The notes under the pieces were generated by a model that worked only from the letters and a program-made list of their open reading frames with translations, had not been told where the DNA came from and did not search any database. Positions 230 to 50,151 of a DNA stretch of 52,863 nucleotides are shown here, in pieces; positions within the stretch are counted from its first letter, which is position 1, and every line of letters starts with the position of its first letter. Origin of the DNA: Clostridiales bacterium (GTDB lineage Bacteria > Bacillota > Clostridia > Peptostreptococcales > Anaerovoracaceae); contig JAAYSU010000135.1 of NCBI GenBank assembly GCA_012523915.1, forward strand, positions 1 through 52,863, given 5' to 3'. A program made the translations under genes and the position numbers.

Positions 230-350
230 AGAGCAAAGTAGAGTAAATATTGTGCGCTTGTCTTTATTTAGACATGTAGTGTCATGGGATGGGATGTTGC
301 CCATGAACGAAAAACTACGGTTTGCGATACAATATTGCGTCCGCTGCTGC
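230..350 (+). promoter_or_regulatory. THF (tetrahydrofolate) riboswitch aptamer (folT motif)
   Basis: Read directly: AAGUAG near the 5' end. P2 pairs AAUAUUGU (246-253) with ACAAUAUU (329-336). Hairpin CAUGGG (283-288) / CCCAUG (300-305) has loop AUGGGAUGUUG, followed by ACGAA and a closing GCGUCCGCUGCU. Architecture and loop match the Eubacterium siraeum THF riboswitch as I remember it. It sits about 70 nt upstream of a folate ECF S-component gene. The expression platform is not resolved. Confidence 0.85.
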
Positions 351-417: not shown

Positions 418-930
418 ATGAAAGGAAAAATAAATACAAGAACCCTTATTCTAATAGCTTTATTTGCGGCTATAAGTATTATATTAGCCAGATTTTTTGT
501 TGTATATCTCACCAACAGTTTGCGTATAAGCTTTGGCAATATACCAATAATCTTGGCCAGCCTCTTGCTTGGGCCGATCGCAGGCGGTCTAACCGCTGCT
601 ATAGCAGATATTCTAGGAGCCTCACTTTTTTCACCCCTTGCCTGGTATCCGCCTTTAACCATATCACCGGTAATTGTCGGCATTTTACCAGCCCTATTGA
701 AAAAGAGGGTCCTACATAAAGTAACTATCTGGCGCCTTTATATCATCATTTTCATAACTAATTTAATTACAAGCATAGGTATAACCACCTATCTTCTTTC
801 TAAGCTCTATGGCTCGCCCTACTTATCCCTGCTTGCCGTGAGGGCACCCCTATCTATATTAGTCAGTATAATAGAAGGATTGGTTGTTTACATATTGTAT
901 AAGAGGCTGATGAAAAACAGTCTCTATTGA
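418..930 (+). CDS. folT: Folate-family ECF transporter S component
   Basis: 170 aa and about 5-6 TM segments. The N-terminus MKGKINTRTLILIALFAAISIILARF...ISFGNIPIILASLLLGPIAGGLTAAIADILGA is typical of FolT-type S components. SD AAGGAAGGA lies upstream, and the gene follows a THF riboswitch. Confidence 0.85.
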   Translation: MKGKINTRTLILIALFAAISIILARFFVVYLTNSLRISFGNIPIILASLLLGPIAGGLTAAIADILGASLFSPLAWYPPLTISPVIVGILPALLKKRVLHKVTIWRLYIIIFITNLITSIGITTYLLSKLYGSPYLSLLAVRAPLSILVSIIEGLVVYILYKRLMKNSLY

Positions 931-1868
931 TATTTCCCGCATCGATCTGAAAAGCACCCAAGCTGTTGCCCTTCGGATTTAATTATGGTAACTTCGCAGT
1001 GATTATCACAATCCTGGCACACAAAATGATCCGTTACTATTTCCTCATTGCCTGTAGCAAACCCACGGAAATTCGTTCTTTCTTTTGTATGTTCATATTT
1101 TTCTTTAGCTAAGATGGCTGCACCGTAAGCACCCATGACATTATAATACTCTGGTACAAAAACCTCACAACCAAGCTCCTCTTCAAAGGCTCGCTTGATA
1201 CCTAAGTTTGCCGCCACTCCACCTTGAAAACATACTTTAGATTTTATAGCTTTTCCCTTTGCTACATTAGATAAATAATTACGCACCAAGGCCTTAGACA
1301 TACCCGCCACTATATCTTCTATCCTACATCCCAGCTGCTGCTTATGTATGATGTCGGATTCTGAAAATACAGCACACCTGCCCGCTATAGCAACAGGATT
1401 TTTAGATTTTAATGCAATTTGACCCAATTCTTCTACCCTATAGCCAAGTCTTTCTGCTTGACGGTCCAAGAAGGATCCGGTACCTGCTGCACAAACAGTA
1501 TTCATGGCAAAATCAGATATTACCCCGTCTCTTATTAAAATAATTTTTGAATCCTGTCCTCCAATCTCTAGCACAGTGCTTATAGCAGGATCTACAGTAG
1601 AAGCTGCTACGGCATGGGCTGTTATTTCATTCTTAACAATATCACCCCCTACGATCGCACCTGCTAAACTCCTTCCGCTTCCTGTTGTGCCTACACCCCA
1701 TATATCATCATCCCTATAGCGATCGCTAAAAAGACGCAGTCCTTCTTTTATAGCTTCAATTGGAGCTCCTCGCGTCTTTAAGTATAGCTGATCTATTATT
1801 TCATTCTCCTGATTCATAATAATAAGATTTGTACTTACAGAACCAACATCAATTCCTAAATATAACAT
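924..1868 (-). CDS. BcrA/BadF/HgdC-family ATPase (acyl-CoA dehydratase/reductase activase-like) with extra C-terminal Cys-rich motif
   Basis: Has the ASKHA N-terminus MLYLGIDVGSVSTN and a second phosphate motif EIGGQDSK. The two cluster-ligand contexts VCAAGTGSF and GRCAVFSESD match HgdC-type activators. The additional tail is CQDCDNHCEV...GCFSDRCGKY. It overlaps the upstream gene by 13 nt. Confidence 0.85.
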   Translation of the reverse strand: MLYLGIDVGSVSTNLIIMNQENEIIDQLYLKTRGAPIEAIKEGLRLFSDRYRDDDIWGVGTTGSGRSLAGAIVGGDIVKNEITAHAVAASTVDPAISTVLEIGGQDSKIILIRDGVISDFAMNTVCAAGTGSFLDRQAERLGYRVEELGQIALKSKNPVAIAGRCAVFSESDIIHKQQLGCRIEDIVAGMSKALVRNYLSNVAKGKAIKSKVCFQGGVAANLGIKRAFEEELGCEVFVPEYYNVMGAYGAAILAKEKYEHTKERTNFRGFATGNEEIVTDHFVCQDCDNHCEVTIIKSEGQQLGCFSDRCGKYQ

Positions 1869-2962
1869 TTTCTCCCCTTATACAAATTAAGATTTTTTCT
1901 TCTCATCAACATATCTATAAAAGCCTCTATACGTGTAACGTATCCTGCTTCTCCCACCATTTCATCAAACACTATAGATAAGACTGGTAAATTTTCATCC
2001 CTTGATAGACCGTCAAATACAGACTTTGCCACAATTTCCGGCATACAGCCAACAGGCAGAATCTGTATTATTCCATCGAAGTTTGCTTTATTAAAACGGT
2101 AAATCCCGCTTACAGTCTCCTTTGCATATCCGCCAATTCTATATGGAATATACTCATTAAAGCGTTTGTTAGAAAAATAGCCGCCTAATGGATTGATAAC
2201 AGTATTGTCTAACCACCACCCTATAGATATTGTCTTTTCAAAGGAAACTCCCATATCCATTAATTTTTCTTCTATATTGTGGTTGCTAAAGCTATCAATG
2301 CAAGTAAATATCTCTCCTGTAAGAATGATTTTAATTGGTTCCTTTAATTGATCTAGTTCAAGACTCTCTATAGAATTATGGCCCTTTTCTAAAATTTTTA
2401 ATGCCATATTAATACTTGTCGTTCTTGCTAAACCTCTTCTGCATTTTTTAACTATTTCTTTTGATTTACCCGCCTGCTTTTCATAGCCCGAATATAATCT
2501 TGCTTTTTTTTCTAGCTTCTCAAACTCCTTAATAACTGTATAAACACCTTTTAAAGCTCTTACTATCTCAGCTCTGCTACAATTGCTGTCCTCTACAATA
2601 GAAACCAGTCTTTTCTTTAGATTGGGTAGACCAATAGCTGATATGGAATCTAAGAGAATCCAATTATACTTATATCCGTGCCTGTCCAGGACCACCTTCA
2701 GCACTTCTCCGTATTCACCTAATCTACATGGTCCCATAGTCGCAGGCATTATAACCGTATCAGCCCCTTTCTCCCAAGCGGATATCAAATTATCAACCAT
2801 GAGTTTGAATGGCAGGCAGATATCTTCAGGAGATATGCTTGATCCTCTTTCTAGTCCAATCTGGCTGTTATGATCAGGGATTACTAATTCCATTCCAATC
2901 TCTTGGAATAATAGCCTGCCGTATATATGGGCATCCCCCAATCTAGGATAAGTAATCCTCAC
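1856..2962 (-). CDS. Acyl-CoA dehydratase activase-related protein (DUF2229-like), paralogue B
   Basis: 368 aa. GTG start at 2962 has GGAGA 7 nt upstream. Motifs EDICLPFK and LPVGCMPE parallel DEACLPIK and SFSCGTDS in the upstream paralogue. The C-terminus is DEMVGEAGYVTRIEAFIDML. It resembles the C-terminal parts of the large fused CoA-substrate-specific enzyme activase proteins. Confidence 0.75.
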   Translation of the reverse strand: MRITYPRLGDAHIYGRLLFQEIGMELVIPDHNSQIGLERGSSISPEDICLPFKLMVDNLISAWEKGADTVIMPATMGPCRLGEYGEVLKVVLDRHGYKYNWILLDSISAIGLPNLKKRLVSIVEDSNCSRAEIVRALKGVYTVIKEFEKLEKKARLYSGYEKQAGKSKEIVKKCRRGLARTTSINMALKILEKGHNSIESLELDQLKEPIKIILTGEIFTCIDSFSNHNIEEKLMDMGVSFEKTISIGWWLDNTVINPLGGYFSNKRFNEYIPYRIGGYAKETVSGIYRFNKANFDGIIQILPVGCMPEIVAKSVFDGLSRDENLPVLSIVFDEMVGEAGYVTRIEAFIDMLMRRKNLNLYKGRKCYI

Positions 2963-3851
2963 GCATCTTTCTCCTTTCTAAAAGCTCTATAAAGGCCTCT
3001 ATCCTTGTATTAAAACCTGCTTCCCCAGTATGCTCATCAAGTTTTAAAACTAAGATGGGCAAATCTTTAACCTTATTCCGAATCAATTCAATAGTTATCG
3101 AATCTGTGCCACAGCTAAAAGATGAGAGATATATTATTCCGTCAATTCTCTTTTCCTCCGAGAGATAACTTGCTGCGCCATAGTTATCTCTTAAAAAAAG
3201 CCAGTATGGCTTTTTCAGCAACCCTATTTGTTGTTTTAGCTTGTAATCTTCAGGAACATCTTCCTCTGTTACTATCCCTATATCCATATTTTTGAGTTTA
3301 TCTTTTAAATTCATATTGATAAAAGAGTCCTTAGTATTATAGGGATGTCCTAACAACGCAATTACTATTCTATTGTCCAGCTCTTCCCTTTGCTTATTTA
3401 CGTATAATTCTTTAAATGCGAATTCAAAGGCCCTGCTTGTTTTATAAGCTGATATTCCCAGCAATTTAGCATCCCGTATAAATGCCTTTTTAGCCTTGTT
3501 TTTATCATTAAGATAAAGGGGGCCGGTAAAAACTAGATTATCTTCTCCTGTACCACTTTTTACAAGCTCAGGCAACCCACAAAACTTTGGGCAAATGGAT
3601 TCTCCGTATTCACACTTCATCAGTCTGAGTACTGCAATTTTATCGCATTCTTTACGTAATTTTGAGACATGGCCGTGAAAAACTTTTATAGGCAGGCATG
3701 CTTCATCGACACAGGATTTAATACCCTCTTCTAAAATCTTTCTGTTTGTTTTGCCAGAATATATGACATCTACTCCTAATCTATCAAAAAAACACCTTAT
3801 AAACCGCTCATATCTATGAAACAATAAACCCTCGGGAATTCCTATTCTCAT
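2943..3851 (-). CDS. Acyl-CoA dehydratase activase-related protein, paralogue A
   Basis: 302 aa. N-terminus MRIGIPEGLLFHRYERFIRCFFDRLGVDVIYS, motifs VDEACLPIKVFHGH and SSFSCGTDS, and C-terminus DEHTGEAGFNTRIEAFIELL. It is the first gene of a translationally coupled three-gene operon, overlapping the next gene by 20 nt. Confidence 0.75.
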   Translation of the reverse strand: MRIGIPEGLLFHRYERFIRCFFDRLGVDVIYSGKTNRKILEEGIKSCVDEACLPIKVFHGHVSKLRKECDKIAVLRLMKCEYGESICPKFCGLPELVKSGTGEDNLVFTGPLYLNDKNKAKKAFIRDAKLLGISAYKTSRAFEFAFKELYVNKQREELDNRIVIALLGHPYNTKDSFINMNLKDKLKNMDIGIVTEEDVPEDYKLKQQIGLLKKPYWLFLRDNYGAASYLSEEKRIDGIIYLSSFSCGTDSITIELIRNKVKDLPILVLKLDEHTGEAGFNTRIEAFIELLERRKMREDYLS

Positions 3852-9263: not shown

Positions 9264-10553
9264 TTAGTTTAAAGACGCAAGTATTCTATTTTTTGATTTT
9301 TCAACTTCATGTTTAACTTTTTCTATATCTAAAGTTAAGTATTCTCCCTCACGGTAAAGAACCTTGCCATCTACCATGGTTAATATGACATCGCTTCCTG
9401 AGGCGGAATATACCACGTTATTTACTAAGTTATGCACTGGATACATATGTGTATCCGAAATATCCAACACTACTAAATCTGCCTTATAGCCTTCAGCTAA
9501 TTTACCTGTATCGGTTCTTCCTTGACCTAATGCGCCTGCTCTTGTTCCTGCATATAGAGCCTGTTTTGGTGTTACCAAGGTTGGATCCTTATATTTCTCC
9601 TTGTGTAACAAGGAAAAGAATTTAATCTCCTCCAAGTAGTTTAAACTATTGTTGCTTGCCACACTGTCTGTTCCGATAGCTACATTTATACCTTTTTCCA
9701 ACATCCTGGGAACATTACATACGCCACTTGCAAGCTTCAGGTTACTTATAGGGCAGCTTGCCACCGTAACTCCCTTTTCAAAGATTATCTCTATATCATC
9801 TTCCTCGACCCAAACGCAGTGGGCCGCTGTAGTTTTGCTATCAAGAAGTCCTAGATCGTTGAAATACTCTATAGGTGTCTTTCCATGCCTTTCCTTACAT
9901 TCTTCATGCTCTTTTTCAGTCTCAGATACATGTACGTGCATGTTTGCACCAATCTCTTTTGTGAATTCAGCGAACTGGCGGACTATCTTAGGATTGGAAG
10001 TATACTCTGCATGAAGGCTCATGTCAACCTTAATCCTTCCATCGCCACTATTATTATATTTATCGAAAAGTTCCTTGGATTCCTTATATGCGATTAAATC
10101 CTTCAAATCTTGATCGGTAAAACAGGTTAAACCCCTTCCTAAATTGCTTTTTACCCCGCTTTCAAGAATAGCATCTGCCATTCTATCACAAAAATAATAC
10201 ATATCAGTTGTAGAAACTATACCAAATCTCAAGGATTCGGCTATACCTAGCAGGGTAGCATAATATACGTCATCGCCATTTAACTTATCTTCGAATGGAA
10301 AAATTCTATCATTTAGCCATGATTGAAGAGACATGTTTTCACCGTAGCCCCTCATAAGGGTCATAGGTGTATGAGCATGGGAGTTAAAAAAACCACTCAT
10401 CAGTAGTTTGCCTTCACCCTCATATATTTGACCATAGTCCTCCTTGGGCATTTCCGTACCAATATAGTCAATTTTATCTTGTTTTATACCAAGGTAGATT
10501 TTTTCCTTAACTTCTAAATTTTCATCCAATATATTTATATTCTTAAATAGCAT
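9264..10553 (-). CDS. mtaD: Amidohydrolase, 5-methylthioadenosine/S-adenosylhomocysteine deaminase-like
   Basis: Metal-ligand motifs FFNSHAHTPMTLMRG, MHVHVSETEKE, AAHCVW and IGTDSVASNNSLN. Start at MLFKNINIL has GGAGGA upstream; the ORF-track start is over-extended. Confidence 0.8.
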   Translation of the reverse strand: MLFKNINILDENLEVKEKIYLGIKQDKIDYIGTEMPKEDYGQIYEGEGKLLMSGFFNSHAHTPMTLMRGYGENMSLQSWLNDRIFPFEDKLNGDDVYYATLLGIAESLRFGIVSTTDMYYFCDRMADAILESGVKSNLGRGLTCFTDQDLKDLIAYKESKELFDKYNNSGDGRIKVDMSLHAEYTSNPKIVRQFAEFTKEIGANMHVHVSETEKEHEECKERHGKTPIEYFNDLGLLDSKTTAAHCVWVEEDDIEIIFEKGVTVASCPISNLKLASGVCNVPRMLEKGINVAIGTDSVASNNSLNYLEEIKFFSLLHKEKYKDPTLVTPKQALYAGTRAGALGQGRTDTGKLAEGYKADLVVLDISDTHMYPVHNLVNNVVYSASGSDVILTMVDGKVLYREGEYLTLDIEKVKHEVEKSKNRILASLN

Positions 10554-42219: not shown

Positions 42220-42654
42220 TTATCTCATTGCCAAGGTAACTTCACCGCTAGCAGCAAGAACATCGCCGTTATATACCTCGGCACTACATGTAGCTATAGC
42301 TTTTTCGATTCTTTCAGTCAGGATTTTAGCATGTATGGTTATAGTATCGCCTGGTTCGATCATGCTCATAAATTTAACCTTATCAATCCCGATAAAATAT
42401 GGAATAGTTCCTTTGTATCTATCTAGGGTCAGTAGCAAAATATCGGATGCTTGAGCCATACATTCTACCGTATACACTCCCGGCAATACTGGCGAACCAG
42501 GGAAATGCCCCTCGAATATGTCTCTTTCAGGACTAACATAAAATTTTGTAATTATCTTCTTGCCAGGCTCTAATTCCAATACCTCATCGACAAGAAGCAT
42601 AGGATCTCTATGAGGTATAATCTTTTTAACCTCTTCTAATGTAAGTTTTTTCAT
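42220..42654 (-). CDS. fabZ: 3-hydroxyacyl-ACP dehydratase
   Basis: IPHRDPMLLVDEV...FEGHFPGSPVLPGVYTVECMAQ is the hot-dog FabZ signature. It stands alone, with no other fab genes in the window. Confidence 0.85.
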   Translation of the reverse strand: MKKLTLEEVKKIIPHRDPMLLVDEVLELEPGKKIITKFYVSPERDIFEGHFPGSPVLPGVYTVECMAQASDILLLTLDRYKGTIPYFIGIDKVKFMSMIEPGDTITIHAKILTERIEKAIATCSAEVYNGDVLAASGEVTLAMR

Positions 42655-42723: not shown

Positions 42724-42753
42724 TTCAAAGAGTCCGGGTTTCCCCGGACCTCT
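42724..42753 (-). terminator. Terminator-like GC-rich hairpin directly after the selenoprotein gene stop
   Basis: On the minus strand: AGAGGTCCGGG-GAAA-CCCGGACTCT, then TTTGAATT. Confidence 0.5.
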
Positions 42754-43053
42754 TCAACAAGAACTGAAATTCCCACCAGTGAAATGAAAACCCTTACGCA
42801 TCCCTTCTTCTGTGTAATCTAACGAAAGTCCCTCCAGATGTCTCTCAAGATCGCTAGCATAAACTACCTTTATTCCGTTCGATTCAATAACCTTATCCAT
42901 TTTGTGTTGCTGCTCATCCAGAGCAAGTCCTAATTTAGGTCCACCTCACCCAAAGCCTCCATAAGAAATTCTCAGCATCTGTTTTTCCGACCTGTCTGTA
43001 CCTGCAACAATCTCATTAATCTTTTTCGCAGCAGCATCGCTAATAGTAATCAT
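42754..43053 (-). CDS. HesB/IscA-like selenoprotein; in-frame TGA (42946-42948) read as Sec
   Basis: Manual translation gives MITISDAAAKKINEIVAGTDRSEKQMLRISYGGFG-U-GGPKLGLALDEQQHKMDKVIESNGIKVVYASDLERHLEGLSLDYTEEGMRKGFHFTGGNFSSC. GGAGG is 7 nt upstream of the ATG. It is a single frame across the TGA, which sits at the conserved Cys position of A-type Fe-S carriers. A SECIS-like hairpin lies downstream. The gene is absent from the ORF track because it is split by the TGA. Confidence 0.7.
42910..42926 (-). other. Candidate bacterial SECIS hairpin
   Basis: UUGCUC-UGGAU-GAGCAG (5 Watson-Crick pairs plus one G-U pair) starts 20 nt after the UGA and has GG in the apical loop. Confidence 0.5.
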
Positions 43054-43216
43054 AAGTTTACCTCCATTTTTTTTACTACTTACTATATTTATGCCTTAGA
43101 ACCATAAATGTTATTATTATATTTAATATAATAAATCGTATACTACAACTTAATCGAATATAAGGGATGATTTATATGCCATAAGAAGATCTGTGATGAG
43201 AAAAAATTATTGATAA

Positions 43217-43261: not shown

Positions 43262-43349
43262 TGGCGGAGAGTGTGGGACTTGAACCCACGGGGCTTTCGC
43301 CTTACTCGCTTTCCAGGCGAGCTCCTTAGCCACTCGGTCAACTCTCCGC
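43262..43349 (-). tRNA. tRNA-Ser (anticodon GGA), CCA encoded
   Basis: The reverse complement GCGGAGAGTTGACCGAGTGGCTAAGGAGCTCGCCTGGAAAGCGAGTAAGGCGAAAGCCCCGTGGGTTCAAGTCCCACACTCTCCGCCA folds as a class II tRNA. Anticodon arm is CTCGC-CTGGAAA-GCGAG, with a long variable arm and T-loop GTTCAAGTC. Confidence 0.9.
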
Positions 43350-43595: not shown

Positions 43596-43670
43596 GTCCC
43601 GTTGGTCAAGTGGTCAAGACGTCGCCCTCTCACGGCGGAGTCAGGGGTTCGACTCCCCTACGGGATACCA
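43596..43670 (+). tRNA. tRNA-Glu (anticodon CUC), CCA encoded
   Basis: GTCCCGTTGGTCAAGTGGTCAAGACGTCGCCCTCTCACGGCGGAGTCAGGGGTTCGACTCCCCTACGGGATACCA has a cloverleaf with anticodon arm TCGCC-CTCTCAC-GGCGG and T arm AGGGG-TTCGACT-CCCCT. It is very similar to the B. subtilis tRNA-Glu backbone but has CTC instead of TTC. Confidence 0.9.
43622..43670 (+). repeat. Direct repeat copy 1 (att-like), the 3' two-thirds of tRNA-Glu
   Basis: 46/49 identical to 45000-45048. Weaker similarity continues about 40 nt downstream of both copies. Confidence 0.85.
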
Positions 43671-43903: not shown

Positions 43904-44104
43904 CTAAATGTCAATCCCGATCCGGGTATATACTTCCTTGACCGTCTTCATGATCTCTTCCCAGTTTATGCCCTCTGCATAATCGAATATCTCTTGGTAG
44001 TTCTTCCACAAAACCTTCATCTCGGGGTCCTGAGGACGTAGTGTCTCAAGGACATATATGTCATAGAAGTCCAGGTCCTTAAGCTGTCTCGATGTCCGGA
44101 TCAT
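43904..44104 (-). pseudogene. Internally deleted AbiEii/DUF1814 nucleotidyltransferase toxin remnant
   Basis: The 66 codons keep a family-like N-terminus (MIRTSRQLKDL), the KDxYDIYxL motif and the C-terminal W..Y....YAEGI.WEE segment. The roughly 200 residues of nucleotidyltransferase core are missing. The start overlaps the abiEi stop (ATGA). Confidence 0.55.
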
Positions 44105-44697
44105 GACAGCAGCACCTCCACGTAGCGGTGGATGATCTTTTCCACAGAAAACATCTTCGCGTAACGCATTAGAAGCGGAATATTCTTCTCCTTGCTCCTC
44201 ATGTAATCCCTGACCGCCGCCTGCAGGGCCTGTCTGTCTACCGGCTGTCGGCTTCGCACAAGATCGCAGATTGTCCGCTCCACATTGTATACCCTTACCG
44301 TGTGGCCGGCCGGCGTTGTCGCTTCCGTCAGCCCCACCGTAAACAGCTCCCTTTTGACTTTGAACACTTTCACTCCTTCGCGCAATAAAACTGTCGCGTT
44401 GGATCCGTACGGCAGCGAAATCGAATAACGCAGCGGCTCCCGCTCTGCAAAGCCGAGAAGATATAGCGCAGTCTCGTGCGAAAATATCCCGGATGGGTAC
44501 CGCGTTTGAATGACATGAAACTCATCATCCCAGTAATCGGCCGATTTGTATAATCCATTGGCTACCCGCTCAAGGCCATTCTTTCGCACATAGTCGCCTA
44601 AATACGCCCTCGAAATTCCGGCTTTCACCGCGTCCGAAGTTTTTAAATATCCTTTGTTCTTTTTTACCAGAAGGTCAAGTTTGTATTTCATACTCAT
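44101..44697 (-). CDS. AbiEi-family antitoxin/transcriptional regulator (type IV TA, abortive infection)
   Basis: LLVKKNKGYLKTSDAVKAGISRAYLGDYVRKNGLERVANGLY is the AbiEi_4-type N-domain, followed by the conserved C-domain (IFSHETALYLLG...ERTICDL). Start is taken at ATG 44697; the ORF-track GTG at 44712 is also possible. Confidence 0.75.
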   Translation of the reverse strand: MSMKYKLDLLVKKNKGYLKTSDAVKAGISRAYLGDYVRKNGLERVANGLYKSADYWDDEFHVIQTRYPSGIFSHETALYLLGFAEREPLRYSISLPYGSNATVLLREGVKVFKVKRELFTVGLTEATTPAGHTVRVYNVERTICDLVRSRQPVDRQALQAAVRDYMRSKEKNIPLLMRYAKMFSVEKIIHRYVEVLLS

Positions 44698-44999
44698 GTT
44701 ATTGCTCACCACCTTACACTTACTCTCTAATTATGTACCATTAGAGATTGAATGTAAAGTATTTTTAAAAAATTTTTGCGATTTACACAAATTTAGATAT
44801 ATGAACGTTTTATTTTTACCCGTCATACACGGTACCGTCCGTATTCAGATCCTGTCGTATACCATTTGTGGTCGTCAGGGGTTATCATTCCCAAATCGCA
44901 GTCCATATATCGGGGCATGGCCACAGCAATGTCATTATAGAAATCTTTGTAGTCATGTGGGAGTTGCTCTTGTAGGCATTGAAAAATAGCCAATCATTA

Positions 45000-45048
45000 T
45001 CGCCCTCTCAAGGCGGAGTCAGGGGTTCAACTCCCCTACTGGATACCA
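45000..45048 (+). repeat. Direct repeat copy 2 (att-like), a displaced 3' fragment of tRNA-Glu
   Basis: TCGCCCTCTCAAGGCGGAGTCAGGGGTTCAACTCCCCTACTGGATACCA has 3 mismatches to the intact tRNA. No 5' half is present, so it is not a functional tRNA. Confidence 0.85.
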
Positions 45049-45122: not shown

Positions 45123-45932
45123 CTAATTCTTCTTTATCCTCGGGTACACATGTATTACCTTTGTCGGGCAAACCTTTGAACATAGGGTGCAGTTCGTACA
45201 TTTTTCATAGTCGATAACGGCATGGTTATCTATTACATGTATGGCATCGAACTTACATTCCTTTACGCAACGATTACATGCTATGCATCCTATTGTACAG
45301 ATCTGTCTTGTTGCCTTAGCTTTATCAATTGAGCTGCAGCCTACTACAACTCGGGTTTTTTCAGGTACTATTTCTATCAAGTAATTAGGACAGGCCTTAG
45401 CACATAGGCCACATCCTACACATTTTTCCCTATCTATTACAGCGATTCCATTTTCTATCTTAATCGCATCATAATCACATACAGCTACACAGTCGCCAAA
45501 TCCTAAGCAGGCAGTTTGACATTTTCCTCTGCCCTTATAGAACAATTTGCTTGCTTGGCATGTGGGATATCCTTGATAGTCCATCGAATAGCTAGTTCTA
45601 TCTAAGGTCCCCGAGCATTTCATAATGGCTATTTTACCTGCCGCTTCTTCAAATTCTAGCCCTAGAATTTCGCTGATATCTTTTACAACCTGATTGCCTC
45701 CGGGTGTACATAGATTTGCTTTTGTATTTTCCCTATCTGCTACAAGGGCATTTGCATAATCTTCACATCCAGCAAAACCACAAGCACCGCAATTAGCACC
45801 AGGTAAGGCTTCTAATACCAATAATGCTGTCTCATCTGTTTCTACAGCCATAAATTTAGCTGCAATTGTAAGGATCACACCGGCAATGAGTCCGATGAGA
45901 GCAACTAATAATATGGGCGTAATATATTGCAT
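45123..45932 (-). CDS. rnfB: Rnf complex subunit B (polyferredoxin)
   Basis: N-terminal TM segment, the CGACGFAGCEDYA motif, and several CxxCxxCxxxCP 4Fe-4S motifs. Confidence 0.9.
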   Translation of the reverse strand: MQYITPILLVALIGLIAGVILTIAAKFMAVETDETALLVLEALPGANCGACGFAGCEDYANALVADRENTKANLCTPGGNQVVKDISEILGLEFEEAAGKIAIMKCSGTLDRTSYSMDYQGYPTCQASKLFYKGRGKCQTACLGFGDCVAVCDYDAIKIENGIAVIDREKCVGCGLCAKACPNYLIEIVPEKTRVVVGCSSIDKAKATRQICTIGCIACNRCVKECKFDAIHVIDNHAVIDYEKCTNCTLCSKVCPTKVIHVYPRIKKN

Positions 45933-45953
45933 GGTCTCATCCTCCCTTCTTCC

Positions 45954-46547
45954 TTAAAGTCCAAGCAGGCCATCTATTACGCCTGCAAATCCCATGAATG
46001 ACAGGGAGACGATAGAGGCCGCAATTAGGGTCGCGGGAATTCCTTTAAATGCTATCGGGAAATTATTATTTTCAATTCTTTGTCTAACTCCTGCAAACAA
46101 TACCATGGCTAACAGGAAGCCAATTCCTGCTCCTAAAGCATTTACTATAGACTGTATGAAAGTATAGCTTTCATCTATATTTAAAATAGTAACTCCCAAT
46201 ACAGCGCAGTTGGTTGTAATTAATGGCAGATAAACTCCTAAGGATTTATACAAAGCAGGCATATTCTTTTTTAAAGTAGTCTCTACCAATTGTACCAAAG
46301 CTGCTATTACCAATATAAATACGATTGTCTGAAGATATTCAATTCCCAATGGGATCAGCAATCCCATGTAAATAGGAAAAGTTACTATAGTAGCCAACAC
46401 CATGACGAAGATAACTGCAAAACTCATCCCTACTGCAGAATCTAATTTCCTCGACACGCCTAGAAAGGGGCATATTCCTAAAAACCTAACTAGCACAAAG
46501 TTATTTACCAGTATAGCACTGAATAATATGATCACCATTTCTTTCAT
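45954..46547 (-). CDS. rnfA: Rnf complex subunit A
   Basis: 197 aa with 6 TM segments. Contains FLGICPFLGVS and LPLITTNCAVLG motifs. Confidence 0.9.
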   Translation of the reverse strand: MKEMVIILFSAILVNNFVLVRFLGICPFLGVSRKLDSAVGMSFAVIFVMVLATIVTFPIYMGLLIPLGIEYLQTIVFILVIAALVQLVETTLKKNMPALYKSLGVYLPLITTNCAVLGVTILNIDESYTFIQSIVNALGAGIGFLLAMVLFAGVRQRIENNNFPIAFKGIPATLIAASIVSLSFMGFAGVIDGLLGL

Positions 46548-47218
46548 TATTCACATCCCCCTTCCTCGATTTTCGCACAAGCTGCAGCTGACGGGCAACC
46601 TTCACAACCTATCTCTTTCTTTTTAATAGCTCTGCCCTTTGTCATGTAGTTTATAAATGCTACCAGGCATCCATAGGTAAAGAATGCGCCTGGTGCCAGC
46701 ATAAAGATCGACATAGGCTCAATAAGGTTTGCTGTAAGAACTATCCCCATCCAAGAGCCAGAACCTAATATTTCCCTTATAGTTCCCATAATAAATAGGG
46801 CTAAGGTGAATCCAAGACCCATTCCTATACCATCAAAAGCTGAATCTATAACCTTGTTTTTGTTAGCAAACATTTCAGCTCTACCTAAAATGATGCAGTT
46901 TACAACTATAAGCGGAATAAATAGGCCTAAAGATTCGTTGACTTCAGGAGCATATGCCTGTAAAAGGAATGATACCAGTGTCACGAACCCTGCTATAACT
47001 ACAATATAGCAAGGGATTCTAACCTTATCTGGAATAATACTTTTTAAAATCGATATTACTATATTCGAACATATTAAAACCGCCATGGTGGAAACTCCCA
47101 TACCTAAACCGTTAATGGCTGTTGTGGTAACAGCCAAGGTGGGACATGTACCTAAGAGCAAAATAAGTACGGGGTTTTCTTTTATAATCCCATTTTTTAA
47201 TAGAGTAATTTTATTCAT
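46547..47218 (-). CDS. rnfE: Rnf complex subunit E, with Cys-rich C-terminal tail
   Basis: LLGTCPTLAVTT and IPLIVVNCIILGRAE motifs. The extra tail is KKKEIGCEGCPSAAACAKIEEGGCE. Confidence 0.9.
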   Translation of the reverse strand: MNKITLLKNGIIKENPVLILLLGTCPTLAVTTTAINGLGMGVSTMAVLICSNIVISILKSIIPDKVRIPCYIVVIAGFVTLVSFLLQAYAPEVNESLGLFIPLIVVNCIILGRAEMFANKNKVIDSAFDGIGMGLGFTLALFIMGTIREILGSGSWMGIVLTANLIEPMSIFMLAPGAFFTYGCLVAFINYMTKGRAIKKKEIGCEGCPSAAACAKIEEGGCE

Positions 47219-47772
47219 TATTTAGCACCCCCTAGCTTTTCGAATTGCTCAAGTGCGGTTTCAACCGCTCTAAATATTGCATTCGAGGATACTGTTGCTC
47301 CAGTTACAGCATCAATACCATTCTCGTCCGATGGATTCGCTGATATCGTCACTTTACCCTCGTATTGAGAAAGATGCTCTACAGTCATTGCCTTTGTGCC
47401 CAGTCCCGGTGTTTCCTGATGGCTTGTAACCTTAACTCCTTCTATCTCTTTGGAGCTATTGATACCTACCATTACAGTTATATCGCCACCAAATCCCTTA
47501 TCGACAATGGTAAATATCATTCCGGATCCATTATTTGCTTGATATACTTCAACTACATTATCAATAAGTTCTATACCTTCCAAAGGAGAAAAACCCTCTG
47601 CTCCTTCGGGTAGTACTTCGGCACGTGCAAGATTTGCTTTTTCCAAATTGATCTCTTCTATAATTGGTTTTGTTATTTGGTAAGTAATAGCTAATGCAGC
47701 TGTTACCACCAAACAAATTATTACCAACACCAAGGTAGGTGCAATCAATTCTTTTGTTTTAACATTAGTCAT
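47218..47772 (-). CDS. rnfG: Rnf complex subunit G (FMN-binding)
   Basis: N-terminal TM segment. The FMN_bind domain ends in the flavinylation motif DAVTGATVSS. Confidence 0.9.
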   Translation of the reverse strand: MTNVKTKELIAPTLVLVIICLVVTAALAITYQITKPIIEEINLEKANLARAEVLPEGAEGFSPLEGIELIDNVVEVYQANNGSGMIFTIVDKGFGGDITVMVGINSSKEIEGVKVTSHQETPGLGTKAMTVEHLSQYEGKVTISANPSDENGIDAVTGATVSSNAIFRAVETALEQFEKLGGAK

Positions 47773-48718
47773 TCTTTACACCTCCATATACATTTGTTCT
47801 TGTCAGGTTATCTATATGGGGTGTCAAGATATTCATAAGTAAGATAGCATAGGATACTCCTTCGGGGTAAGAGCCGTATAACCTTATAATCATTGTCAAC
47901 AGCCCGCACCCTATACCGAAGATAATCTTACCCTTGGTTGTCAGCGGCGAAGTCGTATAGTCAGTAGCCATAAAGAATGCCCCTAGGAAAACACCGCCAG
48001 CACATATATGAAATATTGGATCATTGCCTGTTACTACTGCGAAAACAAATACTGTCGCAATAAATGCCACCGGTATCGTAGGTTCTATTACCTTTCTTAC
48101 AATTAAATATATGCCACCAATTAACAGAGCTATTGCACTTGTTTCTCCTAAAGAACCCCCGATAAAACCAAGAAACATATCCAAGTTAGATGGGACTGCA
48201 TCTGAACCCGTAGCTATAACTCCTAAAGGAGTAGGTCCTGTAACTGCATCTACCATTCCCATAAGCTTTTTAGGCAAGGGCCAAGTTGTCATGGGAGTAG
48301 CGAAAGATATTAATAGTACAATTCTGGCAGTAATTGCAGGGTTAACAAAATTCTGCCCGATTCCTCCAAACAGCTGCTTCACAATAACTATTGCTACAAA
48401 ACAACCTATAACTGCCATCCAAAAGGGTAAATTAGCAGGCAGATTAAATGCAAGCAATACTCCAGTTACAACCGCACTATAATCGGAAATTGTATTGTCT
48501 TTCTTCAGTATGTAGTTGAATAATCCCTCAAAGATAACACAAGCCACTACGCAGACTATGGTCAATACTATTGCTCTCGTTCCAAATACAATACCGGACA
48601 TAATAAATGCAGGAATCAAGGCAATTATTACATCTAGCATAATCTTGGAAGTATCTACATTGTCAAATATGTGGGGAGAGGAAGAAACAACAAGATTTCC
48701 ATTATTATATTGCTCCAT
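47765..48718 (-). CDS. rnfD: Rnf complex subunit D
   Basis: 317 aa and polytopic. N-terminus SSSPHI, and FFMATDYTTSP, which contains the covalent-FMN Thr context. Confidence 0.9.
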   Translation of the reverse strand: MEQYNNGNLVVSSSPHIFDNVDTSKIMLDVIIALIPAFIMSGIVFGTRAIVLTIVCVVACVIFEGLFNYILKKDNTISDYSAVVTGVLLAFNLPANLPFWMAVIGCFVAIVIVKQLFGGIGQNFVNPAITARIVLLISFATPMTTWPLPKKLMGMVDAVTGPTPLGVIATGSDAVPSNLDMFLGFIGGSLGETSAIALLIGGIYLIVRKVIEPTIPVAFIATVFVFAVVTGNDPIFHICAGGVFLGAFFMATDYTTSPLTTKGKIIFGIGCGLLTMIIRLYGSYPEGVSYAILLMNILTPHIDNLTRTNVYGGVKND

Positions 48719-50028
48719 TATTTGTTCCCTCCTTCCATAACTTTTTGCTTAGCTAATTTATTTACAAAGCTCAACTGTTTTTTCGCAGGACACACATAAG
48801 TGCAGGTTCCACATTCCATACAAGATAGAACATTGAGCTTCTTCAATTCATCCACATCATTCTTATCATAGGCCTTTAGTATTAACGTAGGCATCAACCT
48901 CATTGGACAGGTTCTAACGCATCTGCCACAATTAATACAAGCCGTTTCCTTGGGTAGCTTTACCCAGTCTTCATCAAAGGCCAATATAGCGTTGTTGTTT
49001 TTAATTATCGCCATATTGTCATTGTAGATGGTCCTTCCCATCATAGGGCCTCCCATTAGAATCTTTTTAGGAGGTTTCTTATAACCGCCGCAAAATTCTA
49101 TTAAATCCTTTATTGAAGTTCCGATTAAAACCTCAACATTTTTGGGCGTATTAACTGCCGTACCATCAACAGTTACCTTTCTAGTTATCAAAGGTATACC
49201 AGTCTGAACATATTTTTCTAAAGCTACTATTGAGCTTACATTGGACACAAGTACACCGACATCCGCAGGAAGTTTACCTATGGGAACCTGCCTGCCTGTA
49301 ACTTCATATATTAAAACTTTCTCTGCACCTTGGGGATAAATTGGCTTGAGTCCCATGACTTCAATTCCATCAGAATCTTTAAAGGCTTCACTCAGTTTCT
49401 CAATCGCAGGGGCCTTGTTTAATTCAATTGCTACAACAACTCTTTTAATACTAAGATATTCCTTTGTCCTCTTAATCCCTTCGACTAACAAGTCGGTATC
49501 TTCCATCATAGTCCTATAGTCAGAAGTGATATATGGTTCGCATTCCGCACCGTTAATTATCAAAGTGTCAACCTCGTCGAGGTTCTTAGGACTGAATTTA
49601 ACATGTGTCGGAAAAGCAGCTCCTCCAAGACCTACCAAGCCAGAATCTCTGACTGCTTTTATAAAGCTTTCTCTATCCGTTATCTTAGGAGCTTTCAAGT
49701 CTTCTATCAATTCCTGTTCCTTATCCAGCTCAATGGTTACAACAGGATCCCATATGCCCATCATGGTCATGTTCTGATCTATTGCCGTAACCTTCCCTGA
49801 AACACTGGAATGAATCGGTGCACTAACAAAAGCGTCTGTATCACCAATTACTTGTCCAACTTTCACCATATCTCCAACTTTTACCCTAGGCTGACAGGGC
49901 GCACCTATGTGCTGTACCATAGAAATGAATACTTTGTCTGGCAGTGGCATCTTCTCTGTAGCGCTATTCTCTGTGTTCTTGTAATGCCCAACCTTAACTG
50001 CTGGCAAATGCTTACTAAAAATGCTCAT
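48718..50028 (-). CDS. rnfC: Rnf complex subunit C
   Basis: QHIGAPCQPRVKVGDMVKVGQ, the NADH/FMN-binding region GLGGAAFPT, and two clusters CINCGRCVRTCP / CMECGTCTYVCP. Start at MSIFSK; the ORF-track start is over-extended. Confidence 0.9.
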   Translation of the reverse strand: MSIFSKHLPAVKVGHYKNTENSATEKMPLPDKVFISMVQHIGAPCQPRVKVGDMVKVGQVIGDTDAFVSAPIHSSVSGKVTAIDQNMTMMGIWDPVVTIELDKEQELIEDLKAPKITDRESFIKAVRDSGLVGLGGAAFPTHVKFSPKNLDEVDTLIINGAECEPYITSDYRTMMEDTDLLVEGIKRTKEYLSIKRVVVAIELNKAPAIEKLSEAFKDSDGIEVMGLKPIYPQGAEKVLIYEVTGRQVPIGKLPADVGVLVSNVSSIVALEKYVQTGIPLITRKVTVDGTAVNTPKNVEVLIGTSIKDLIEFCGGYKKPPKKILMGGPMMGRTIYNDNMAIIKNNNAILAFDEDWVKLPKETACINCGRCVRTCPMRLMPTLILKAYDKNDVDELKKLNVLSCMECGTCTYVCPAKKQLSFVNKLAKQKVMEGGNK

Positions 50029-50151
50029 AATTATATCACTCTCTTTATATTTATTTATTAACAAGCCCCTCGGGGACACCCTAGACCATTATAACATAAA
50101 AAATTTATTAAATTATAATACAATTTGTTGTTTTCTGTAAGAATAACCGAA

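Follow-up and report, generated by a model that had tools for sequence, protein, structure and literature searches.

The Locus

The window analyzed here is a whole NCBI contig of 52,863 nt. Its minus strand carries, between fabZ downstream and a tRNA-Ser(GGA) gene upstream, a 99-codon frame (43053..42754) whose translation is interrupted by a single internal stop, a TGA at codon 36, and which ends at a second TGA at codon 100; coordinates are collected in Table 1. The ATG start is preceded by GGAGG, and the read-through product carries the motif U36-G-G-P39 (U being the predicted selenocysteine, Sec), D79, and a C-terminal C99. A terminator-like hairpin lies directly 3' of the stop codon and separates the gene from fabZ, with genes for an old-yellow-enzyme-type oxidoreductase and HtpG (htpG) further downstream, and the upstream tRNA-Ser gene is closed by a terminator of its own (terminator scan); the gene therefore looks monocistronic. 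Re-translation and direct reading of the sequence confirmed the coordinates, frame, start, GGAGG, hairpin, and terminator given in the original prediction, including its GC-rich hairpin after the real stop, for which an 8-bp stem was found.

The same prediction had held that standard gene callers would miss this gene, and they do, because the Sec codon resembles a stop. A standard open reading frame listing cuts the gene into pieces of 35 and 48 amino acids. The NCBI records of three members of the same clade (P0065, P0074, and P0079) are C-terminal fragments of 54–57 residues annotated as "hypothetical protein," and a search of the representative library with the 48-amino-acid C-terminal fragment gave only nine short matches, which proved to be the C-terminal parts of further genes split by a TGA.

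Table 1. Features of the window and of related loci (L numbers) discussed in the text
Feature	Sequence	Position	Strand	Basis or remark
Ribosome-binding site GGAGG	Window	43061..43065	-	7 nt 5' of ATG 43053; direct sequence reading
CDS, predicted HesB/IscA-like selenoprotein	Window	42754..43053	-	99 codons + TGA stop; translation, Pfam PF01521, TIGR00049
Predicted Sec codon UGA, residue 36	Window	42946..42948	-	Same-column TGA in relatives; aligned to E. coli IscA Cys35
Small extra hairpin CCUA-AAU-UAGG	Window	42929..42939	-	Between UGA and SECIS stem; MFE and centroid folds
SECIS-type hairpin UUGCUC-UGGAU-GAGCAG	Window	42910..42926	-	RNAalifold, covariation on 22 sequences
SECIS-type hairpin, 5' arm UUGCUC	Window	42926-42921	-
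SECIS-type hairpin, loop UGGAU	Window	42920-42916	-
SECIS-type hairpin, 3' arm GAGCAG	Window	42915-42910	-
Real stop codon TGA	Window	42754-42756	-	Codon 100
Terminator-like GC-rich hairpin	Window	42731..42750	-	8-bp stem, 6 GC pairs; terminator scan
fabZ	Window	42220-42654
tRNA-Ser(GGA)	Window	43262-43347
tRNA-Glu(CTC), 3' 49 nt	Window	43622-43670
Repeat of tRNA-Glu 3' 49 nt	Window	45000-45048		94% identity
AbiEi-family gene	Window	44101-44712
THF riboswitch	Window	237-348	+	63.6 bits; gathering score 36
ECF-transporter S-component gene	Window	418-930
2-Hydroxyacyl-CoA dehydratase-type trio	Window	924-3851	-
Rnf complex operon	Window	45123-50079
sel + hesB(U) cluster	L028	5359-10297
sel + hesB(U) cluster	L029	5399-10297
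sel + hesB(U) cluster	L031	5239-10297
sel + hesB(U) cluster	L056	2218-7180
sel + hesB(U) cluster	L059	2238-7174
Tandem HesB-like selenoprotein pair	L021	592-870, 915-1217
Tandem HesB-like selenoprotein pair	L027	about 9703-9980, 10001-10290
HesB-like selenoprotein gene and neighbors	L058	7430-12699		Syntrophomonadaceae

Other Features of the Window

The 3' 49 nt of a tRNA-Glu(CTC) gene are repeated 1378 nt downstream, with an AbiEi-family gene between the two copies; the arrangement resembles what is left of an element that had inserted into the tRNA gene. A different assembly of this species (L012) has IS21, IS110, and Mu-type transposase genes between the tRNA-Glu gene and the tRNA-Ser/hesB side. 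Near the start of the window, a tetrahydrofolate (THF) riboswitch scoring well above its gathering threshold lies directly upstream of the gene for an ECF-transporter S component, which is probably a folate transporter. Close by on the minus strand is a trio of the 2-hydroxyacyl-CoA dehydratase type, comprising a BcrAD_BadFG activator ATPase and two DUF2229/HGD-D subunits. Such a trio and the Rnf complex operon, also present in the window, are typical of an amino-acid-fermenting anaerobe.

Conservation of the TGA Codon

The 300-nt gene, TGA included, is identical in nine independent assemblies from different samples; the TGA is not the sequencing error considered in the original prediction. 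The TGA occupies the same column in every homolog whose DNA was read, about 25 distinct sequences that are 39–89% identical. It was found at 26 of 26 related loci from two collections (11 from species-representative genomes and 15 from metagenomes), in three further lineages (L056, L058, and L059), and in P0001 together with five more homologous genes from another four contigs. The species-representative loci with TGA belong to Clostridiales, Oscillospiraceae, Family XIII, Syntrophomonadaceae, and Candidatus Neomarinimicrobiota. Around this column the motif is always G-U-G-G-P, except in one group of paralogs, where it is A-G-U-A-G-P.

The column is Cys in P0043, P0045, P0072, and P0093 and in the solved IscA structures; the codon of P0072, checked in its DNA, is TGT. 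The original prediction had placed the TGA at the first cluster-ligand Cys of the family and had expected the column to hold Cys or Sec in homologs. Both points stand: the codon aligns with E. coli IscA Cys35 and with the TGT of P0072, relatives carry TGA, and the true Cys forms carry Cys. The gene thus shows both the Sec/Cys pairing and the conserved UGA expected of a bacterial selenoprotein gene.

Comparison with an 89%-identical ortholog (L024) revealed 20 synonymous and ten non-synonymous codon changes, spread over both sides of the TGA, with none in the hairpin-bearing codons 39–54. This excess of synonymous changes indicates purifying selection both upstream and downstream of the TGA.

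Many full-length database proteins of the family carry Trp (W) at the Sec column. Dozens of public predictions (P0001, P0011–P0042, and others) are of this kind, sometimes with a spurious terminal W. The DNA of P0001 has TGA at the column, and its terminal TGA is also read as W, so the W in P0001 is a genetic-code-4 call, made on a short contig; the other W-bearing predictions probably have the same cause, P0001 being the one among them whose DNA was read. Within the window, TGA is the terminator of nine of the 42 other genes. The genetic code is therefore standard here, and code tables 4 and 25 were rejected on the basis of this stop usage.

A SECIS-Type Hairpin Downstream of the TGA

A hairpin begins 19 nt after the TGA, and its apical loop begins 25 nt after it. 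The bare hairpin has a folding energy of -7.2 kcal/mol and the 60-nt region that contains it one of -9.8 kcal/mol. Single-sequence folding is indistinguishable from that of shuffled sequences (z-score of -0.21) and was rejected as evidence on its own; the significance of the hairpin comes only from comparison with homologs.

For this comparison, 22 distinct sequences were aligned from the TGA to position +57. RNAalifold returned exactly the same six pairs with a UGGAU/A/G loop, and four of these pairs show changes on both sides. At pair 25–37, the sequences have GC (13), AU (six), UA (two), or GU (one), and the pair is broken in none; at pair 24–38, six standard pair types occur among the 22 sequences; and at pair 27–35, U-A is replaced by C-G in one sequence, where the conserved Glu gives way to Gly. 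Cells changed on both sides number 20 in the alignment compared with 7.3 +/- 2.1 in shuffles, a count reached in none of 500 shuffles, and 79.5% of cells are paired compared with 28–48% after a shift of the 3' partner by one to three columns.

Codon choice in this stretch is constrained as well. CUG encodes Leu45 in each of the 22 sequences, despite making up only 12.7% of the Leu codons in the window, and Glu47 is GAG wherever Glu is retained (21 sequences; the 22nd has Gly, encoded by GGG), compared with 33.6% of the window's Glu codons. Synonymous sites in the hairpin region are thus frozen. In the Cys form P0072, Leu45 is encoded by TTG and the stem is weaker with the same amino acids, an anecdotal observation on one sequence.

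The bacterial SECIS model of Zhang and Gladyshev, as summarized in PMC13188914, calls for a loop of 3–9 nt, a stem of 4–16 bp, a G within the first two loop positions, a distance of 16–37 nt from the UGA, and a minimum free energy of no more than -7.5 kcal/mol (PMC13188914). The window hairpin has a 5-nt loop with G at position 2, a 6-bp stem, and a spacing of 25 nt, within a region that folds at the energy given above. It resembles the consensus in being a stem-loop within the coding sequence just after the Sec UGA and in having G at loop position 2 followed by a second G; it differs in that the stem is short and the energy of the bare hairpin is marginal. It also differs from the SECIS of E. 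coli fdhF in having no bulged U. The SECIS-like hairpin of the original prediction is therefore retained, being preserved with compensatory changes in TGA-carrying homologs and in agreement with the published bacterial model. The L-A-L-D-E motif downstream of the Sec column is largely a reflection of this RNA element at the protein level.

A small extra hairpin sits after the UGA and 5' of the SECIS stem, where the Gly-Pro codons (GGNCCN, with Pro39) pair with the region of the Gly42 codon; many homologs have it, though not all, and similar GGNCC/GGNCC pairings occur in several of them (alignment columns 7–22).

Protein Family, Fold, and Ligand Residues

For profile searches, U36 of the window protein was replaced by Cys. 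Pfam PF01521 (Fe-S_biosyn) recognizes the read-through product with E=5e-12 and 46.4 bits against a cut-off of 26.3, and NCBIfam TIGR00049 does so with 63.8 bits against a cut-off of 58.8. The two selenoprotein-specific HesB models also match it, but with scores short of their cut-offs: 57.5 against 85 for NF038090 and 45.8 against 66.35 for TIGR01911. The other members of this Clostridia-type clade are likewise under both cut-offs, whereas deltaproteobacterial members pass NF038090.

Relatives of known structure in the PDB are E. coli IscA, Haemophilus HI1723, Aquifex AQ_1857, the [2Fe-2S] IscA 1x0g, and SufA. The AlphaFold model used was that of a homolog, P0001, which is 54% identical to the window protein and carries W at the Sec column; its mean pLDDT is 82.8 and its C-terminal tail is disordered. 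It superposes on E. coli IscA with a TM score of 0.83–0.85, and its top Foldseek matches are 1r94 and 1s98, so that the IscA fold is assigned to the window protein by way of this homolog. Geometry near residue 36 in the model is not trustworthy, because of the W at that column.

Aligned to the IscA sequences in the PDB, residue 36 of the window protein pairs with Cys35 of E. coli IscA and with the corresponding Cys of AQ_1857 and HI1723, C99 lies at most one residue from IscA Cys99, and D79 falls at a conserved position. The protein ends with C99, its single terminal Cys, and so has no counterpart of IscA Cys101. The ligands of A-type carriers are taken here, also from the description of the 1x0g structure, to be Cys35, Cys99, and Cys101 of E. 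coli IscA. Of these three, the window protein has a predicted Sec at the first position, a Cys at or beside the second, and nothing at the third. The A-type carrier layout proposed in the original prediction is thus upheld as far as membership of the HesB/IscA family goes (PF01521 and TIGR00049) and fails for the third ligand, since the protein lacks the last Cys of the C-G-C motif.

The window protein is accordingly like the carriers IscA, SufA, and ErpA (PF01521, TIGR00049) in fold, as judged from the P0001 model, in its TIGR00049 score, and in the three aligned positions. It is unlike them in having a predicted Sec in place of Cys as first ligand, in lacking the third, in having some paralogs without a C-terminal Cys, and in having no isc or suf genes nearby. 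The C-terminal Cys is absent from L021a, L027a, L027b (a downstream copy), and L055, and Sec is the sole reactive residue kept in all members of the clade.

L021 and L027 each carry a tandem pair of HesB-like selenoprotein genes. The upstream paralog of these pairs has 92 residues, the motif A-G-U-A-G-P, and no C-terminal Cys.

Comparison with Known HesB-Like Selenoproteins

The original prediction regarded HesB-like selenoproteins as a family that had merely been predicted. In fact the family is established and common. A list from 2006 has eleven bacterial members, several of them in Clostridia (PMC1794560), and Clostridium perfringens carries one (PMC1242214). By 2016 the count had risen to 90 proteins in 86 organisms, which ranked the family sixth among bacterial selenoproteins (PMC5029168), and a 2026 review lists it with the motif UxGP and the model TIGR01911 (PMC13188914, table 1). 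The HesB-like selenoprotein of Methanococcus maripaludis was identified by mutagenesis and 75Se labeling, as reported in PMC11097638; this archaeal protein is the only HesB-like selenoprotein known to have been labeled in this way.

The window protein shares with the known HesB-like selenoproteins (TIGR01911, HesB_rel_seleno; NF038090, IscA_HesB_Se) a small HesB/IscA domain with Sec predicted at the first conserved Cys, the U-x-G-P motif (PMC13188914, table 1), here U36-G37-G38-P39, a SECIS within the stretch that encodes LALDE, and occurrence in anaerobes, including Clostridia (PMC1794560, PMC1242214). It differs from them in three respects: its clade lies under the trusted cut-offs of both models; it has a single terminal Cys where the family has a Cys/Gly/Ser-rich tail with several Cys; and in its clade the gene frequently follows directly after selB.

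Selenocysteine Machinery and Linkage to sel Genes

A tRNA scan and tblastn searches with SelD, SelA, and SelB found no tRNA-Sec, selA, selB, or selD in the whole-contig window, and none lies in roughly 10 kb of further flank per side taken from other assemblies; tblastn with the three proteins likewise gave no hits at the flank loci L035–L040. For the source organism, Sec decoding is therefore a prediction. Nor do isc or suf genes occur near the window gene or in the flanks examined.

In five divergent relatives (L028, L029, L031, L056, and L059), the gene closes a cluster with the order tRNA-Sec, selD, selA, selB, hesB(U). In these clusters hesB(U) lies on the same strand as the sel genes and starts 40–90 nt after selB, and SelD itself contains Sec, in the motif SKAG-U-ASK. 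The sel proteins of L028, L029, and L031 are 48–60% identical to each other. Among the distinct clade members whose upstream sequence is long enough for a verdict, about 19 in number, five show the linkage, and these five are scattered through the clade on a rough neighbor-joining tree. We found no mention of hesB(U) following selB in the papers that we searched. Clustering of the neighbors at 20 loci returned as recurrent only the sel genes and one loose group of oxidoreductases; most members, including the window gene, are located elsewhere, among unrelated neighbors. In L056, a thioredoxin gene and a thioredoxin-reductase-like gene lie just upstream of selD.

At L058, from a member of the Syntrophomonadaceae, the cluster that comes after the HesB-like selenoprotein gene encodes CbiA/ParA-type Fe-S ATPases, two Nitro_FeMo-Co proteins (NifX/NifB-like), and DUF134 and DUF5320 proteins. 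This is the only context that hints at metal-cluster handling.

Recoding and Function

We regard it as very probable that this gene is intact and monocistronic, that it encodes a selenoprotein of 99 residues with the HesB/IscA fold, and that its UGA36 is recoded by way of a SECIS, an assessment that concerns identity and mechanism and not function. The decoding of UGA36 as Sec is what we infer from the anatomy of the gene and the comparative support described above. According to this mechanism, the UGA at codon 36 would be read as selenocysteine; the 6-bp hairpin within the coding sequence, its UGGAU loop 25 nt downstream, would act as a bacterial SECIS and recruit SelB carrying Sec-tRNA(Sec) to the ribosome; and the second TGA, at codon 100 and with no such hairpin after it, would terminate translation. 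The reactive center of the product would be Sec36, at the position of the first ligand Cys of A-type Fe-S carriers, and Sec36 may work with Cys99 on a flexible C-terminal tail. An A-type-carrier-like center made up of Sec36 and Cys99, probably at a dimer interface, is predicted from the fold, from the conservation of D79, and from the two ligand positions.

The function that we prefer, tentatively, is that of a dimeric carrier that would hold and pass on an Fe-S cluster or an iron/chalcogenide precursor through its Sec and Cys ligands. What speaks against a classical Fe-S carrier is that the third Cys is missing and that some members, including the L021/L027 tandem paralogs, have no C-terminal Cys. 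The close second is a possible, somewhat less probable role in the selenocysteine pathway, as a relay for selenium or sulfur or as a redox protein, and the rest of the probability belongs to something else.

A role in selenium handling would leave the gene and its recoding as described and replace only the Fe-S carrier function: a perselenide or selenotrisulfide formed on Sec36 could be passed to SelD, or the protein could buffer selenide. We consider this doubtful but a serious competitor. It is suggested by the frequent position of the gene as the last of the selC-selD-selA-selB cluster in members scattered across the clade, and the thioredoxin system genes beside selD in L056 point the same way, as does the finding that Sec is the only reactive residue that all members share. 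Adjacency to sel genes may, however, reflect co-transfer or co-regulation instead of shared function, most members have unrelated neighbors, and one relative, that of the Syntrophomonadaceae, has Fe-S-type ATPases and nitrogenase-cofactor-like proteins beside the gene. The fold and the two ligand positions, moreover, are those of Fe-S carriers, the function that we prefer.

It is very unlikely that the UGA is read without Sec, whether as Trp or Cys by a near-cognate tRNA or under a reassigned code, or that the source genome has lost its Sec machinery. Such a reading would account for the absence of this machinery from the contig and its flanks and for the W that public gene callers place at the Sec column of homologs. 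The W calls, however, are code-4 artefacts, certainly in P0001, whose DNA has TGA and whose terminal TGA is rendered as W as well, and probably in the others; TGA is an ordinary stop in the window, including that of the selenoprotein gene itself; complete sel clusters occur in relatives; and simple read-through has no use for a SECIS-type hairpin that is conserved and covaries. That the locus is a pseudogene or an assembly error, with a Cys or Trp codon corrupted to TGA and two meaningless short frames, as its halving by ORF calling and the short hypothetical proteins annotated in its NCBI relatives might suggest, is effectively refuted by the nine identical assemblies, by a TGA kept in every relative over several bacterial families, and by the excess of synonymous changes on both sides of it.

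Significance

The window gene is an ordinary additional member of the known HesB-like selenoprotein family, and its novelty is low; it does not change the understanding of selenocysteine recoding. What is new is modest, namely a clade that scores below the cut-offs of two NCBI selenoprotein models, has one C-terminal Cys, and is often linked to sel genes. Its practical value is as a concrete case of a selenoprotein gene that is missed in annotation and whose UGA is elsewhere rendered as Trp under the wrong code, and a dedicated model for the Clostridia-type clade would recover many such genes.

The recurrence of the gene directly after selB and the existence of Sec-bearing paralogs without Cys are testable leads on the function of HesB-like proteins. 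The boldest proposal that they allow is that the single-Cys Clostridia-type clade is a dedicated selenium carrier or delivery protein acting with SelD, and not an Fe-S assembly factor. We think this improbable; if true, the order selC-selD-selA-selB-hesB(U) would mark hesB(U) as a fifth sel gene, and a selenoprotein family recognized since the mid-2000s would have its first function.
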